Assembly: GCF_003289645.1 (NCBI RefSeq)
Contig: NZ_QLYX01000008.1
Location: 208,147-272,146 of the forward strand
Source of the DNA: Actinomadura craniellae
GTDB taxonomy: Bacteria; Actinomycetota; Actinomycetes; Streptosporangiales; Streptosporangiaceae
Direction: 5' to 3'
DNA length: 64,000 nt
In this document: positions 2,626-8,342 of the stretch, piece after piece
Layout: each line of letters opens with the position of its first letter
How positions within the stretch are numbered: the first letter of the stretch is position 1
Notes under the pieces: model-generated
Databases searched by the model: none
Seen by the model: only the letters and a program-made list of their open reading frames with translations
Told to the model about the DNA's origin: nothing
Position numbers and translations under genes: made by a program

Positions 2626-4032
2626 TCACGGGCGTTCGGCGAGGCGGTTGGTCAGGGAGAGGGCGGTGGCGGTGAGGGAGGCGGCCAGCAGCACGGCGAA
2701 GGCGCGGTGGTAGCCGGTGAGGAGGCTGTCCAGGGCCCCGTCCGGCAGGTGGGCGCCGGCGTACAGGAGGTGGCGGTCGGTGACGGCCAGGGCCGAGGCC
2801 GCGACGGTGAGCGAGACGGCCGTGCCGAAGACGATGCCGAGCTGGTTGAGGGTCAGGCGCATGCCGTTGACGACGCCCAGCCGCACCTTGGGGACGCCCA
2901 GCATGATCGCCGCGGTGTTGGCGGTGTAGAAGACGCCGCCGCCCACGGTGACCATGGTGAGGCCGACGATGAGCGGCGCGTATCCCGCTTCCAGAGAGAG
3001 CAGGACGACCAGGAGCCCGCAGCTCGCGATGGCTGAGCCCATGAAGGCGACGGTCCGGGGCTGGACGTACCGGGCGAGCTGGCCGCCGAGCGGTGCCGCC
3101 ACCAGGCCGGCGATCGGCCCGGGGAGCACGGCGAGGCCGGCCTGGGCCGGGGTCATCCCCAGTCCGCTCTGGAAGAACAGGGCCAGCAGCAGCACGGTGC
3201 CGACCCGGCTGAGGGTGTTCGCGAAGGCCGCGAGGTTGCCCAGGGTGAAGCGCCGGTCGTCGAACAGGTCCAGGTCCACCAGCGGGTGGGCGGCCCGTAG
3301 TTGCCGCAGCGCGAACAGCGGGAGTGTCACGGCGAACGCGGCGGCCCCGGCCGGGACGAGCGGACCGCTCCAACCGGAGGAGCCGATCTCGGAGACGGCG
3401 AGGACCAGCCCGCCCATCCAGCCGAGCAGCAGGCCCGCCCCGAGCAGGTCGATCGGCTCGCGCGGGCCGGGCGGTACGCGGGGCAGGGAGAGTGCCGCCC
3501 AGGTCAGCGCGATGATCCCGACGGGGACGTTGAACCAGAACACCCACCGCCAGCCGAGGGTCTGGGCCAGGTAGCCGCCGAGCGACGGGCCGAGCAGCGG
3601 GGCGGTGGCGAGCGCGCCGAGGTAGACGCCGAGCCCCTGGCTGAGCCGTTCGGGCGGGAACGCGTGCGCGATGATCGCCGTCCCGTTGGCCAGGATCATC
3701 GCCCCGCCGACGGCCTGCACGACCCGCAGCGCGATCAGCGTTTCGACGCTCGGTGCCAGCCCGGCGAGCAGGCTGGCGGTGGTGAAGACCGCGAAGCCGA
3801 GCAGGTAGGTGCCGCGCCGGCCGACCACGTCGGCGAGCCGGCCGAACACGATCAGCAGCGAGGTCTCGACCAGGATGAATGCCAGCACCAGCCAGCTGGC
3901 GGCGAACGCGCCGGCGTCGAAGTGCGCCACCACCACCGGCAGGGCCACGTTGAGGGTGGTGGTGTTGAGCACCAGTAGCACGGTGCCCAGGCTGACGACG
4001 GACACCACCCGCCAGGGGTTCACCTCCGGCAT
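2626..4032 (-). CDS. MFS transporter, DHA2 (14-TMS drug:H+ antiporter) family
   Basis: Highly hydrophobic 468-aa protein with about 14 predicted TM helices and an MFS signature (GRLADVVGRR). The alternative overlapping Arg-rich frame 2615..4054 was rejected. Confidence 0.8.
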   Translation of the reverse strand: MPEVNPWRVVSVVSLGTVLLVLNTTTLNVALPVVVAHFDAGAFAASWLVLAFILVETSLLIVFGRLADVVGRRGTYLLGFAVFTTASLLAGLAPSVETLIALRVVQAVGGAMILANGTAIIAHAFPPERLSQGLGVYLGALATAPLLGPSLGGYLAQTLGWRWVFWFNVPVGIIALTWAALSLPRVPPGPREPIDLLGAGLLLGWMGGLVLAVSEIGSSGWSGPLVPAGAAAFAVTLPLFALRQLRAAHPLVDLDLFDDRRFTLGNLAAFANTLSRVGTVLLLALFFQSGLGMTPAQAGLAVLPGPIAGLVAAPLGGQLARYVQPRTVAFMGSAIASCGLLVVLLSLEAGYAPLIVGLTMVTVGGGVFYTANTAAIMLGVPKVRLGVVNGMRLTLNQLGIVFGTAVSLTVAASALAVTDRHLLYAGAHLPDGALDSLLTGYHRAFAVLLAASLTATALSLTNRLAERP

Positions 4033-4102: not shown

Positions 4103-4125
4103 TTTTAGAGCGAAATTCTAGAACG
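4103..4125. promoter_or_regulatory. TTYTAGARCG box pair upstream of the methyltransferase gene
   Basis: TTTTAGAGCG and TTCTAGAACG repeat seen directly; the same box recurs at 4951..4976 and 6832..6852. Confidence 0.4.
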
Positions 4126-4179
4126 GGGTGAAGAGAAGTCGTTACGTTTGGGGTCCGGTGAGGGAAGGTTGAGGAACCT

Positions 4180-4950
4180 GTGGATACGTCGAATATTGAT
4201 ACAAGTAAGCCGAATCCCGCCCGTATGTACGACTACTTCCTGGGGGGCAAGGACAATTTCGCCGTCGACCGGGAGGCCGCCGAGCAGGTCCTCGAACTGG
4301 TCCCCCAGATCCCCTACCTGGCCCGTGCCAACCGGGCCTTCCTGCGCCGGGCCCTGCGGTTCCTGATCTCCGAGGGGATCGACCAGTACATCGACCTGGG
4401 CACCGGGATCCCCACCCAGGGGAACGTGAACGAGATCGTGCTCGACGCGATCCCGGACGCCGGGATCATGTACGTCGACATCGACCCGGTCGTCTGCGCG
4501 CACGCCCGGGCGCTCACCGGGGACCGGGTCCAGGTGCACCAGGCCGACCTGCGCGACCCCGACGCGGTCCTGGCCGCCGCCCGCCAGACCCTGGACCTGG
4601 ACCGGCCGGTCGGCCTGATCGCCGTGGCGGTCATGCACTTCGTGACCGACGACCAGGAGGCCGGCGCGATCATGGCGGCCTACCGGGCGGCGCTCGCGCC
4701 GGGCAGCTTCCTGGTGTTGACGCACGGCACCGACGAGAGCCTGGACAGGGACACCAAGGAGGGGAGCGTCGGCGTCTACGAGAAGTCGACCTCGCCCGTC
4801 CACCTGCGCTCGACGGCCGAGGTCGCCCGGCTGTTCGAGGGCTTCACCCTGGTGGAGCCCGGGGTGGTCGACCTGGCCGCGTGGCGGCCCGACGCGGAGA
4901 CCCACCAGCTGGACGGGGTGTACGGGCTGGGCGGAGTCGGCCGCCGCTAA
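4180..4950 (+). CDS. SAM-dependent methyltransferase (PF04672/DUF574-type, actinobacterial)
   Basis: Hallmark N-terminus MYDYFLGGKDNFAVDRE; Rossmann motif IDLGTGIP. Confidence 0.8.
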   Translation: MDTSNIDTSKPNPARMYDYFLGGKDNFAVDREAAEQVLELVPQIPYLARANRAFLRRALRFLISEGIDQYIDLGTGIPTQGNVNEIVLDAIPDAGIMYVDIDPVVCAHARALTGDRVQVHQADLRDPDAVLAAARQTLDLDRPVGLIAVAVMHFVTDDQEAGAIMAAYRAALAPGSFLVLTHGTDESLDRDTKEGSVGVYEKSTSPVHLRSTAEVARLFEGFTLVEPGVVDLAAWRPDAETHQLDGVYGLGGVGRR

Positions 4951-4986
4951 TTCTAGAACGAACCACTAGAATCACGCTCGTTTCCA

Positions 4987-5796
4987 GTGAGCGGGGTGGT
5001 TCGGGTGGCGGAAGACCAGAGCGTCGAAGCGTTTTTCACCGAGGTGGGGGACGAGTTCGTCCCCCACCCGCACGCGCGCAGCCCCTGGTCGTCCCGCATG
5101 CTCCACGGCCGGCTGCTGGGCGGGCTGATGGCTCGCGCGGTCGAGCGGGAGCACGCCGGGGAGGACCTGGGGTTCGCCCGGTTCACCGTCGACCTCTACC
5201 GCAACAGCCCGTTCGTGCCGCTGCGGATCACCACCCGGCGGGTCCGCGACGGGCGCCGCGTCCGGGCGGTCGACGTCGAGGTCACCGCCGAGATCGGGCC
5301 GGTCGCCCGCGCCTCGGCGCTGCTGCTGCGCCGCTCCGCGCAGCCCGCCGGCGCGGCCTGGACCGCCCCCGTCTGGGACGTGGACCCGCCGGAACTGCTC
5401 GGCGAGCCGACCGGCAACGGCTTCGACCACTGGTGGATCGACGAAGACGGCCGGCAGGCCACCCACCGCTGGACGGGAACCCGCCGCAACCGGCTGTGGA
5501 TGCGCGAGCGCCACCCCCTGATCCAGGGCGAGTCGGTGTCGCCGTTCGTCCGGACGGCGCTGGCCGCCGACATGGCCAGCCCGGTCGCCCACTTCGGGTC
5601 GGGCGGGCCCGCCTTCATCAACGCGGACTACTCCGTCAACCTGGCCCGGCTGCCGCTGGGCGAGGTCATCGGCATCGAGTCCGCCGGCCACCTGAGCGAG
5701 GGCGGCATCGCCGCCGGCCACTGCACCCTGTACGACGCCTCCGGCCCGTTCGGGCACTGCGCCGTCTCGGCCATCCACAACCCCGTTCCCCGCTGA
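4987..5796 (+). CDS. Thioesterase-family protein (acyl-CoA thioesterase-like, 4HBT_3 hot-dog fold)
   Basis: N-terminus FFTEVGDEFVPHPHARSPWS...HGG is typical of the TesB-like double hot-dog family. GTG start. Confidence 0.65.
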   Translation: MSGVVRVAEDQSVEAFFTEVGDEFVPHPHARSPWSSRMLHGRLLGGLMARAVEREHAGEDLGFARFTVDLYRNSPFVPLRITTRRVRDGRRVRAVDVEVTAEIGPVARASALLLRRSAQPAGAAWTAPVWDVDPPELLGEPTGNGFDHWWIDEDGRQATHRWTGTRRNRLWMRERHPLIQGESVSPFVRTALAADMASPVAHFGSGGPAFINADYSVNLARLPLGEVIGIESAGHLSEGGIAAGHCTLYDASGPFGHCAVSAIHNPVPR

Positions 5797-5810
5797 ACCC
5801 GGACGGGGTA

Positions 5811-5995
5811 CGGCGGTGGAAGCCGCGCCGCCGGATGGATGGCCAGTGGCGAGCGGATCGGACGGTCCAGGCGGGCGTGGCGGTGGGAGCCGTGCCGCCG
5901 GATGGATGGCCGGTGGCGTGGGGATCGGACGGGCGTGACGGTGGGAGCCGTGACCGCCGGATGGATCGGCCCTCGCTAGATCGATCGTTCCAGGG
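5811..5995. repeat. About 60-bp tandem repeat, roughly 2.8 copies (GGTGGGAGCCGTGCCGCCGGATGGATGGCCGGTGGCG...)
   Basis: Direct inspection: three near-identical units between the thioesterase stop and the TetR start. Confidence 0.7.
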
Positions 5996-6010
5996 GCGTA
6001 GCCTGGAACG
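5986..6010. promoter_or_regulatory. Perfect palindrome CGTTCCAGG-GGCGTAG-CCTGGAACG abutting the TetR start codon (candidate TetR operator)
   Basis: 9-bp inverted arms seen directly; the ATG of the TetR gene follows at 6011. Confidence 0.5.
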
Positions 6011-6583
6011 ATGGCAGGGGCGTCGCGGGAACGGATCGAAGTCGTGGCGGCCGAGCTGCTGGCCCGGCACGGGTACCACGGGCTGGGGCTGAAGGCGCTC
6101 AGCCAGGCGGCGGGGCTGCCGTACGGGTCGATCTACCACCACTTCCCCGGCGGCAAGGAGGAGATCGCCGTCGCGGCGATCACCGGCTGCGGGGAACGCC
6201 TCGGCGGAATGATCCGTGGCCTGCCCGACCAGGCGGTGGTGGCCACGGGGACCATGTTCGAGGCCATGGTCTGGCAACTGTCGGATTCCGACTGGGGCAG
6301 GGGCTGTCCGATCGGCACCCCCGCCCTGGACGGCGCCACCGAGTCAGCGGCGGTGCGGGAGGCCGTCGCCGGCGCCTTCGCCGCCATGACCTCCGCCCTG
6401 GCCGAGCGCCTGGCCGCGCTGGGCGTGCCGGGAGACCGGGCGGACCACCTGGCCACCACGATCATCGCCGCCTACGAGGGCGCGACCATGCTCGCCCGCG
6501 CCCAGCGCTCACCCGCCCCGCTGCAGGCTGCCGGCGAGGCCATGACCGCCTTGGTCCGTGCCGCCCTCCCGGAAACTCCCTGA
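6011..6583 (+). CDS. TetR/AcrR family transcriptional regulator
   Basis: N-terminal HTH (LGLKALSQAAGLPYGSIYHHFPGGKEEI) with an all-alpha C-terminal domain. Confidence 0.85.
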   Translation: MAGASRERIEVVAAELLARHGYHGLGLKALSQAAGLPYGSIYHHFPGGKEEIAVAAITGCGERLGGMIRGLPDQAVVATGTMFEAMVWQLSDSDWGRGCPIGTPALDGATESAAVREAVAGAFAAMTSALAERLAALGVPGDRADHLATTIIAAYEGATMLARAQRSPAPLQAAGEAMTALVRAALPETP

Positions 6584-6617
6584 CCTGCGCCCCGACGCCA
6601 CGGGCGGCATCGAAGCC

Positions 6618-6790
6618 GTGATCCTCCAGCATCCGAGGCGCCCCAGCGCACCGAAAACCGAAGGATCAGCCGGGCCAGGGCCTTGGCTTGCTGATCCTTC
6701 AGCATCCGAGGTGCTGTGACGCCCTGAAAGCTGAAGGATCAGCGGGCGAAGGCCCTGGCCGGTGATCCTTCGGGTTTCGGGTCGCCTGAT
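6618..6790. repeat. Cluster of three REP/MITE-like inverted-repeat units (CTGATCCTTCAGC...GCTGAAGGATCAG)
   Basis: The central unit has perfect 13-bp arms; the same element family recurs at 35001..35128 and, degenerate, at about 52990..53045. Confidence 0.7.
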
Positions 6791-6892
6791 GTCCCTGCTC
6801 TGAAGGGGCTTCATGGCGGGCTCGACTGTTGACTAGAAAGAACGTTCTAGCGATACTCCGGTCAGGAGTTCGTCTGACGGTGGGAGCAGGGC

Positions 6893-7924
6893 ATGCGGCG
6901 GTTGATGCTGGACGGGCCGGGGGCCGTGCGGTGGGAGGAACATCCCGAGCCGGAGATCACCGGCCCGGGGCAGGCGGTCGTGCGGCCGGTGGCGGTGGCC
7001 ACCTGCGACATCGACCCGGCGGTGCTGACCGGGGTCTTCCCGCTGGCGGGGCCCTACCCCTTCGGGCACGAAGGGGTGGGCGAGGTGGTCTCCGTCGGTG
7101 CGGACGTGCGGAAGGTACGGCCCGGCGACCTGGTGGTGGTGCCGTTCCAGATCTCGTGCGGCGCGTGCGGGCCCTGTACCCGGGGGCGTACCGGGAACTG
7201 CGCGGCGCACCCGATGATGTCCACCTACGGCCTCGGCCCGATGGGCGGGCTCGGCTGGGGCGGGCTGCTGGCCGACCTGGCGCTGGTGCCGCACGCCGAC
7301 GCCATGCTGGTGCACGTCCCGCCGGGGGTGGCGGCTGAGACGGTGGCCAGCGCCAGCGACAACATCCCCGACGCCTACCGGGCCGTCGCCCCGCACCTGG
7401 CCGCCGAGCCCGGCGCGGAGGTCCTGGTGGTCGGCGGGAGCGGACCCTCGTCCATCGGCCTGTACGCCGCGGGCCTGGCGGTGGCGCTCGGCGCCGCCCG
7501 GGTGGTCTACCTCGACCACGACCCGGACCGGCTGGGCATCGCCGCGGCGCTGGGCGCCGACACCCGGGAAGGAGGCTACGAGGACAGGCTCGGCGCCTTC
7601 CCGATCACGGTGGACGCGAGCGGCGCCCACGAGGGGCTGCGCCGGGCCCTGCGGAGCACGGCCCCCGACGGGGTGTGCACCAGCGTCTCGGTCTACCTGA
7701 AGGACCCGCCGCTGCCGATGTTCCAGATGTACTCGCGGTGCTGCACGCTGCACACCGGCCGGGCGCACGTCCGCCCGGCGATCCCCCAGGTGCTGGACCT
7801 GGTGGCCCGCGGCCGGTTCGACCCAAGCCTGGTCACCACCACCCTGGTCGACTGGGAGGACGCCCCCGAGGCACTACCGGCCGCCCCGCTGAAACTGGTC
7901 GCCACCCGCACCGGGACGCCATGA
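6893..7924 (+). CDS. Zinc-dependent alcohol dehydrogenase (MDR) family
   Basis: Catalytic zinc site GHEGVGEV; structural zinc site CGACGPC; Rossmann motif VVGGSGPSSIG. Confidence 0.85.
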   Translation: MRRLMLDGPGAVRWEEHPEPEITGPGQAVVRPVAVATCDIDPAVLTGVFPLAGPYPFGHEGVGEVVSVGADVRKVRPGDLVVVPFQISCGACGPCTRGRTGNCAAHPMMSTYGLGPMGGLGWGGLLADLALVPHADAMLVHVPPGVAAETVASASDNIPDAYRAVAPHLAAEPGAEVLVVGGSGPSSIGLYAAGLAVALGAARVVYLDHDPDRLGIAAALGADTREGGYEDRLGAFPITVDASGAHEGLRRALRSTAPDGVCTSVSVYLKDPPLPMFQMYSRCCTLHTGRAHVRPAIPQVLDLVARGRFDPSLVTTTLVDWEDAPEALPAAPLKLVATRTGTP

Positions 7925-8342
7925 GCGGCCGGGACGCCACCACCGCCGGATCAGCGTAGATGAAGCAGCCCTGGTTCAACGTTTACCCAGGGTCGGCAAC
8001 TGAACATCGCTGCAGATACACGGTTTCCTCCCCGCCAGGGCCTGCCAGCAGGCGAAACCGTGCATATCCGCAATCTTTACGAGCAGAACGTTCCCAGGGG
8101 CAGGTCTTCCCACGCGAACAGCCTTGCTGGAGCGGGAGACCCGAGTTCTTCCGGACGAGAAGAACCACTCATCAAGAAGAACGTCGACAAACGTCAAGGG
8201 GCTGGTTCACTGGGCCCTGGCTGGGCCCTTTGGTGGGCCTCGAATGGTTCCAAATTGGGTCTCCAGGCCCTGTTCGGGAACTTCGATTAACATCATATTC
8301 ATCTTTGTCAAAGGAATTATGATGAACTGTGGCAGGTGATAG

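Follow-up and report, generated by a model that had tools for sequence, protein, structure and literature searches.

A predicted TetR operator in the promoters of a zinc dehydrogenase and its regulator gene, with related half-site boxes at neighbouring genes, in Actinomadura craniellae

An AT-rich decamer, TTCTAGAACG, recurs in front of genes that flank a tetR gene in a 64-kb stretch of the Actinomadura craniellae genome (hereafter the window, to which all window counts refer). An earlier note on this DNA took the word for the common operator of a small TetR regulon made up of a methyltransferase, a thioesterase and a Zn-dependent alcohol dehydrogenase (ADH). This raises the question of whether the word belongs to the local repressor and, if so, which of the neighbouring promoters that repressor might control. 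The observation itself is real: every word named in the note lies where it was reported (TTTTAGAGCG at 4103–4112, TTCTAGAACG at 4116–4125 and again at 4951–4960, ACTAGAATCACG at 4965–4976), and the near-palindrome assigned to 6832–6852, upstream of ADH, includes CTAGAAAGAACGTTCTAG at 6833–6850. The decamer contains CTAGAACG(A), which our comparisons identify as the 9-bp half-site of a predicted 18-bp operator, CTAGAACGA/TCGTTCTAG. Two copies of the predicted operator, named OC and OT, lie in front of ADH and tetR, respectively, while the decamers upstream of the other two enzymes belong to boxes A and B, through which an extension of the regulon is plausible but unproven. The TetR–ADH part of the locus has the following features.

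6011..6583, plus strand: tetR, gene of a TetR/AcrR repressor (Pfam PF00440, PF21993)
6893..7924, plus strand: ADH, gene of a Zn-dependent medium-chain dehydrogenase (Pfam ADH_N, ADH_zinc_N)
6829..6857, plus strand: ADH promoter TTGACT-17-GATACT (promoter scan), with predicted operator OC, CTAGAAAGA/ACGTTCTAG, at 6833–6850
5976..5993, unstranded: predicted operator OT, CTAGATCGATCGTTCCAG (CTAGATCGA/TCGTTCCAG; 18-bp scan, two mismatches to the ideal)
5999–6004, plus strand: putative tetR −10, TAGCCT (from spacing only)
6003–6011, plus strand: extra half-site CTGGAACGA (match to CTRGAACG; 13.9 bits with the half-site matrix)

The tetR product carries an N-terminal TetR-type helix-turn-helix (PF00440, 42.9 bits against a cut-off of 24, residues 12–55) and a C-terminal LmrA/YxaF-like ligand domain (PF21993, 90.6 bits against a cut-off of 27). 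Its closest solved structure is that of Bacillus subtilis YxaF (1SGM, E=2.5e-21, over residues 3–183). Judged by this domain content and nearest structure, it is a TetR/AcrR repressor of the LmrA/YxaF(QdoR)-like subgroup. Its recognition helix, YGSIYHHFPGGKEE, is invariant in orthologues with 55–64% identity. The window yielded no further TetR gene, and the best 120 matches to this TetR include only one A. craniellae protein, which is 100% identical to it.

The near-palindrome upstream of ADH, singled out in the earlier note, proved to be a predicted 18-bp palindromic operator set within a sigma-70-like promoter. TTGACT-17-GATACT is the sole promoter of this kind found in the region (one site against 0.1 expected); its −10, GATACT, occupies 6852–6857, and OC, which departs from the ideal 18-bp palindrome by two mismatches, fills the 17-bp spacer. 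We fetched 80 loci from reference genomes through the alignment of ADH homologues, counting as orthologues those TetR proteins with at least 50% identity that are encoded co-directionally with, and upstream of, ADH. Such a TetR, 55–64% identical and directly upstream of ADH, was found in 30 out of 80 loci (29 from Nocardia and one from Actinocorallia longicatena). In all 30 of them, the ADH promoter carries TTGACTAGAAAGAACGTTCTAGCGACACT, and a CTAG-type palindrome is located 14–31 bp before the ADH ATG. The string TTGACT(A/G)GAAAGAACGTTCTAGCGACACT is likewise present in 30 out of 30 and ends 6 nt before the ATG, which implies the geometry of a leaderless transcript. The promoter 29-mer is near-invariant throughout these loci, as well as in the metagenome contig L091. 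In two Nocardia loci (L006 and L015), the 18-bp palindrome is perfect (CTAGAACGATCGTTCTAG, that is, CTAGAACGA/TCGTTCTAG), which fixes the dyad and gives CTAGAACGA as the half-site. The ADH orthologues, which are 70–78% identical, adjoin the TetR orthologues, so that ADH is clearly the conserved partner and the predicted target of this TetR.

The palindrome changes with the repressor. At most loci with a distant, divergently encoded TetR (33–40% identical), AAGACGATCGTCTT- or TAGACCGATCGGTCTA-type palindromes are found instead of the CTAG type: 12 out of 21 are of the TAAGACGATCGTCTTA type and 5 out of 21 of the TAGACCGATCGGTCTA type, with the CGATCG centre kept. Among loci lacking a detectable TetR, only 1 out of 29 has a CTAG-type palindrome. 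This covariation between operator type and TetR clade is good evidence that the CTAG-type palindrome acts as the operator of the local TetR, and it bears out the link between box and regulator that the earlier note had drawn. Outside operators, CTAGAACG is nearly absent from 710 kb of related loci. A constant CGATCG centre with arms that change with the TetR clade would make a tidy case of repressor–operator co-evolution. The loci concerned are given in the following line.

L025, L029, L032, L033, L039–L041, L046–L053 (upstream of ADH, ~3930–4000); L059, L063, L066, L071, L074, L075, L078: loci with a divergent TetR and alternative operators

The ADH orthologues of Acidimicrobiia, Mycolicibacterium and Pseudonocardia are accompanied by a divergent TetR (33–40% identical) and tandem TAAGACGATCGTCTTA-type operators, and the ADH loci of Solirubrobacterales by TAGACCGATCGGTCTA-type operators. 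In three loci (L002, L003 and L004, from Nocardia sp. NPDC005978 and related strains), a TetR with 58% identity and the same recognition helix adjoins a thiamine-diphosphate enzyme, not ADH; no CTAG-type operator was found there within 12 kb, and the spacer holds a different palindrome, AATTATTGGCAATCAATT. The metagenome contig L091, which encodes the closest ADH relative (78% identical), has tandem operators, CTGGAGGGAACGTTCTGC and CTGGAAAGAACGTTCTAG, 22 bp apart at 327–366; its ADH leader is ~35 nt long, as in the window, and not leaderless. In Nocardia amamiensis (L016), a further CTAGAACGA adjoins the ATG. Many Nocardia loci (L008–L038 and others) share a second conserved palindrome, CCGGAA-N3-4-TTCCGGAA, ~60–80 bp upstream of the ADH ATG, between the tetR stop and the ADH promoter (locus coordinates ~3920–3945). 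The window lacks this palindrome, to which another regulator may bind.

Scanning the window for the ideal 18-mer with up to five mismatches returned only OC and OT, each with two mismatches, against a chance level of 0.03 sites within four mismatches of the ideal per shuffled window. OT, overlooked in the earlier note, lies directly upstream of tetR, 18 bp before its ATG (6011–6013). The hexamer TAGCCT follows 5 nt past the end of OT and 6 nt before the ATG, a spacing from which we infer the tetR promoter; tetR is, thus, probably leaderless and autoregulated. The extra half-site CTGGAACGA, also overlooked before, overlaps TAGCCT and ends on the first base of the ATG. The 18-bp scan found no second operator at the Nocardia TetR orthologue loci. 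Taking the scan and the comparative loci together, we have high confidence in OC and OT as predicted operators of this TetR. The gap between the thioesterase gene and tetR (5811–5979) contains a 67-bp unit repeated ~2.6 times in tandem, and the last partial copy runs into OT.

The decamers upstream of the methyltransferase and the thioesterase lie in two boxes whose setting is as follows.

2626..4032, minus strand: major facilitator superfamily (MFS) efflux gene of the DHA2 family, EmrB/QacA type (Pfam MFS_1, 159 bits; NCBIfam TIGR00711 efflux_EmrB, 240.6 bits against a cut-off of 230.2)
4103..4126, unstranded: box A, half-site-like 9-mers A1 TTAGAGCGA (4105–4113) and A2 CTAGAACGG (4118–4126)
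4180..4950, plus strand: S-adenosylmethionine-dependent methyltransferase, PF04672 (Pfam Methyltransf_19, 294.8 bits)
4951..4974, plus strand: box B, half-site-like 9-mers B1 CTAGAACGA (4953–4961) and, after 4 nt, B2 CTAGAATCA (4966–4974)
5005..5796, plus strand: acyl-CoA thioesterase, 4HBT_3 family (Pfam PF13622)

The efflux gene, overlooked in the earlier note, is divergent from the methyltransferase gene and shares with it the intergenic region that holds box A, which makes it a candidate extra target of TetR. For the methyltransferase, the start GTG 4180 (256 aa) is favoured over the ATG 4225 of the NCBI annotation (241 aa) because homologues align from residues 1–3 of the longer open reading frame (ORF); with this start, the distance from box A to the methyltransferase start is halved. 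The thioesterase most likely starts at GTG 5005, since the called start of an orthologue with 82% identity (in contig L005, described below) corresponds to this codon, an in-frame GTG at 4987 being a possible alternative. The words do lie upstream of these genes, as the earlier note had it, but its range of 50–65 bp to the start codons does not hold throughout: with GTG 5005, the box is 45–54 bp upstream of the thioesterase.

Boxes A and B have the same build, each consisting of two 9-mers in direct register on the same strand, 13 bp from start to start. In 797 kb comprising the window and the fetched loci, direct 9-mer pairs with this spacing occur only in A, in B and in the copy of B in L005. 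B1 is a perfect operator half-site (nine out of nine positions). When a 9-bp half-site matrix built from the operators of other genomes only was used to rank 127,984 window positions, B1 came 2nd, A2 14th, A1 26th and B2 47th. The repeated word itself stands out in exact form: TTCTAGAACG occurs twice against 0.04 expected from shuffles and 0.006–0.013 from Markov models of order 1–3, and CTAGAACG three times against ~0.28 (Markov). With one or two mismatches allowed, TTCTAGAACG is barely or not enriched in the window. The tetramer CTAG is strongly avoided (69 sites expected, 18 present), yet six of those present fall within 4118–6850; CTRGAACG is found nine times against 2.5 expected, with six of the nine in the TetR locus. 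A 12-mer, AATTCTAGAACG, is identical at 4114–4125 and 4949–4960, which are 835 bp apart and flank the methyltransferase gene (<0.001 expected). Boxes A and B and the CTAG cluster all lie within 2.8 kb, beside the one TetR with this half-site. Intergenic GC content is lower here (~60–63% in 300-bp windows spanning the intergenic regions).

The positions of the boxes would suit a repressor. B1 would span roughly −29 to −19 of the thioesterase promoter, and box A would overlap both the likely −10 of the efflux gene and the −35 region of the methyltransferase. We lean with modest confidence towards a TetR–ADH module with OC and OT as its operators and a regulon extended by the half-site boxes. In the mechanism that we infer, ligand-free TetR dimers would sit on OC and OT and block RNA polymerase at the ADH and tetR promoters, until a small molecule frees the repressor from the DNA; the Zn-dehydrogenase partner is the single hint at this ligand that we found. 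Boxes A and B would be non-canonical, lower-affinity or cooperative sites for the same TetR, each with a strong half-site and a weaker one 13 bp away, placed over −10 elements; in this lineage, they would have drawn the DHA2 pump, the methyltransferase and the thioesterase into the TetR–ADH regulon. Binding of A and B by this TetR is the more tentative part of the proposal, a realistic possibility that we hold with some reserve. More doubtful is the formulation in which one TetR would use two operator grammars, namely a high-affinity 18-bp palindrome at ADH and tetR, which would be its ancestral targets, and, at the more recently recruited pump, methyltransferase and thioesterase genes, two half-sites in direct orientation, spaced by 13 bp and fused to −10 elements. 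We know of no TetR precedent for half-sites in direct orientation at this distance.

The comparison with L005, a metagenome contig of 1,666 bp from run ERR9903756, bears on box B. Sequenced genomes offer no close orthologue of the methyltransferase, whose best relative (66% identical) is encoded on this contig, followed by a thioesterase with 82% identity; L005 contains only these two genes. At their junction, TAGTTCTAGAACGATTCACTAGAATCA, the two 11-mers of box B, TTCTAGAACGA and CACTAGAATCA, are identical to those of the window, while two of the four spacer bases differ. This amounts to modest evidence that both 11-mers are under constraint. A metagenome scan gave no thioesterase relatives, and a scan for CTAGAACGANNNNCTAGAATCA (the two 9-mers) gave five low-GC chance matches only.

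Several results weigh against an extended regulon. Neither A nor B was recovered in the 18-bp palindrome scan, even with five mismatches; read as 17-bp palindromes, they have 4 mismatches out of 16, a count that three unrelated window sites share. The identity between the window and L005 in the intergenic region, 45 out of 54 positions (83%), is only modestly above the neutral proxies, namely the third codon positions of the thioesterase (79% identical) and of the methyltransferase (68%). In the ~65 bp that L005 has upstream of its methyltransferase, no box A was found. The methyltransferase and the thioesterase were found by tblastn in 0 of the 80 ADH loci, and the pump gave one weak match only, in the separately fetched Actinocorallia locus L001. 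The absence of these genes from related ADH loci indicates that the neighbourhood is specific to A. craniellae: TetR–ADH is a conserved two-gene module, and the methyltransferase–thioesterase pair occurs on a contig of its own, L005, whose 1,666 bp leave any further neighbours out of sight. The proposal of the earlier note that the three enzymes act on one substrate is, therefore, left without comparative support. Its claim of one shared operator survives in part: the word is a half-site, the ADH site is a full predicted operator and the link to TetR recurs in 30 out of 30 loci, but A and B do not reproduce that operator. The weaker idea of a regulon stands because the half-site of the only TetR detected in the window lies in the promoters of its three neighbours.

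The alternative that survives best restricts the regulon to tetR and ADH. A and B would then be promoter −10 elements (TAGAAT, TAAAAT) with their neighbouring bases, or a binding site for some other regulator brought in with the methyltransferase–thioesterase cassette, and their likeness to the half-site would be partly coincidental. The sequence of the boxes lends itself to this explanation. B2 contains TAGAAT (4967–4972), the probable −10 of the thioesterase, and the minus strand of box A, CGTTCTAGAATTTCGCTCTAAAAT, offers two −10-like hexamers facing the MFS gene, TAGAAT (4120 to 4115) and TAAAAT (4107 to 4102), so the resemblance of both boxes to the half-site stems in part from such hexamers. 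The thioesterase gene of Nonomuraea gerenzanensis (51% identical) is likewise preceded by CTAGAAT, with a leaderless GTG 8 nt further on, and the Nonomuraea record searched has no orthologue of this TetR or of ADH. The same explanation would account for the failure of A and B in the canonical operator tests, for the occurrence of box B with its two genes on a separate contig and for their absence from the 80 ADH loci. Yet B1 is not a −10 of the coding strand, lying instead in the repressor-type position given above; it matches the half-site at every position, with only one of the 127,984 ranked positions scoring higher, and CTAGAACG is nearly confined to operators in the 710 kb of related loci. 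Nor did we see a gene for any other regulator next to these genes. We consider this explanation possible, though somewhat unlikely.

Less of the evidence fits the proposal that A and B, on either side of the methyltransferase, arose by decay or duplication of a promoter–operator module and have little present function. The identity of AATTCTAGAACG in both boxes and the degenerate second halves of both would be expected of such relics. However, box B is kept in L005 even though the methyltransferase there is only 66% identical, and the AATT prefix of the 12-mer reads AGTT in L005, where an upstream copy is missing. The repetition of the whole 12-mer, in which the TAA stop codon takes part, is therefore probably a matter of local coincidence. 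The vicinity showed neither a transposase gene nor terminal repeats. We regard a relic origin as improbable. Chance recurrence of an AT-rich word in the AT-richer intergenic DNA of a high-GC genome, to which the local GC content and the bare or missing enrichment with mismatches would lend some colour, is very improbable, given exact counts from 10 to more than 100 times the expectation, even under an order-3 model that absorbs the avoidance of CTAG, and the clustering of the matches in 2.8 kb beside a TetR whose orthologues carry the half-site.

Readings of the words in terms of other known elements were also considered and set aside. Eukaryotic heat-shock elements (nGAAnnTTCn), the sole match to the decamer or palindrome in the literature, are irrelevant here, and no 15–18-mers of the operator were found in the searchable literature. 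On inspection, OC has GAACGTTC without the 2-nt gap of the KstR-type motif (TnnAACnnGTTnnA), and A and B have no second arm; for the DasR dre site, with its GGTCTAGACC core, the flanks do not match. The spacing of an extracytoplasmic function (ECF) sigma promoter (GAAC...CGTT) is off at box B, and its GTT is mutated in L005. An RNA element or riboswitch was discarded, as Rfam gave no match at A, B, OT or OC. Mobile-element ends or a target duplication flanking the methyltransferase are unlikely, given that L005 has box B and no upstream copy. The promoter of the Nonomuraea thioesterase, CTAGAATATCGTTCTGT, is operator-like, but it stands in a record without TetR or ADH orthologues and favours TAGAAT as a −10, not a shared regulon.

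Further features of the window surround these genes. Upstream of the efflux gene, a 16-codon ORF (MARRLTSDPARAVTCRR followed by a stop; minus strand, 4073–4023) is preceded by GGGGGAG, runs on across the MFS ATG (4032) and terminates 10 nt beyond it; it may serve the efflux gene as a leader peptide or by coupling translation. Between tetR and the ADH promoter (6615–6771), a 73-bp unit is repeated ~2.2 times and forms a long hairpin whose arms (6673–6703 and 6730–6760) are 90% complementary. The hairpin (6673–6760) gave only sub-threshold Rfam matches of the microRNA type, and the spacers of Actinocorallia and Nocardia lack the repeat, which could be an insertion resembling repetitive extragenic palindromes or miniature inverted-repeat transposable elements, or an insulator between tetR and ADH. 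ADH is followed by a 420-bp spacer of low GC content (54–59%; 7925–8342), in which AGAACGTTCC (8085–8094) fails the 18-bp operator test and an ORF at 7960–8322 has no Pfam match. A 656-aa ORF on the minus strand (198–2168) has no Pfam or NCBIfam match. In the Actinocorallia locus L001, a 658-aa ORF (7658–9634) without a Pfam match lies directly after ADH; the two ORFs show no similarity by tblastn.

The operator CTAGAACGA/TCGTTCTAG and a core regulon, consisting of the Zn-dehydrogenase and, in A. craniellae, tetR, are now defined by sequence alone for an uncharacterised TetR–ADH module that is widespread in Nocardia and also present in Actinomadura and Actinocorallia. The near-invariant promoter–operator cassette could be used for genetic tools and as a probe set in the search for the inducer. 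How a local repressor might come to control its neighbours as well could be tested on a small scale with the half-site boxes. If TetR binds A and B, the binding mode would be mildly novel and, if the two-grammar formulation were true, the locus would show a regulon caught in the act of growing by half-site capture. Apart from these boxes, this is ordinary TetR biology, the only unusual element being the direct-pair architecture of A and B.

In its predicted working mode, this TetR resembles QdoR/LmrA and QacR, that is, a ligand-released repressor acting on a palindrome within a promoter. It shares the C-terminal family PF21993 with the LmrA/QdoR (YxaF) repressors of B. subtilis, which respond to flavonoids and act on lmrAB, qdoI-yxaH and qdoR. 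The LmrA target lmrB encodes a DHA2 MFS pump, the same type as the gene beside box A, and such pumps are classic targets of this TetR subgroup. The LmrA/YxaF box, AWTATAtagaNNGgTCTAKAWT, has arms that differ from those of the operator described here. The likeness has other limits: similarity to YxaF is remote at the sequence level (E=2.5e-21), the partner is a Zn-dehydrogenase and not a quercetin dioxygenase, and tetR precedes its predicted target in the same orientation. As predicted here, the arrangement is nevertheless like that of QdoR, with palindromic boxes overlapping the promoters of both an adjacent enzyme gene and the gene of the repressor itself. Repression by QdoR/YxaF relies on one operator at its own gene and on two at qdoI (PMC8481877).

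QacR of Staphylococcus aureus is a TetR repressor of the DHA2 MFS efflux gene qacA (PMC3022030), whose operator, a long inverted repeat over the promoter, is bound by a pair of dimers (PMC3022030, PMC5397183). Unlike that site, the operator predicted here spans 18 bp instead of 28 and would fit one dimer, and box A, although it lies beside a pump gene, lacks the length and symmetry of a QacR site. The QacR IR1 site (CTTATAGACCGATCGATCGGTCTATAAG) shares the theme TAGAxCGATCG...TCTA with the operators of this locus and of the Solirubrobacterales loci. In Vibrio, LuxR/HapR sites have one strong half. Pairs of dimers on overlapping repeats are the binding mode of some TetR proteins, and Bacillus halodurans FadR places two dimers on 16-bp repeats offset by 4 bp (PMC5397183). 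FadR and LuxR/HapR would, by analogy, provide a precedent for TetR sites beyond simple single palindromes, of the kind that A and B would need.

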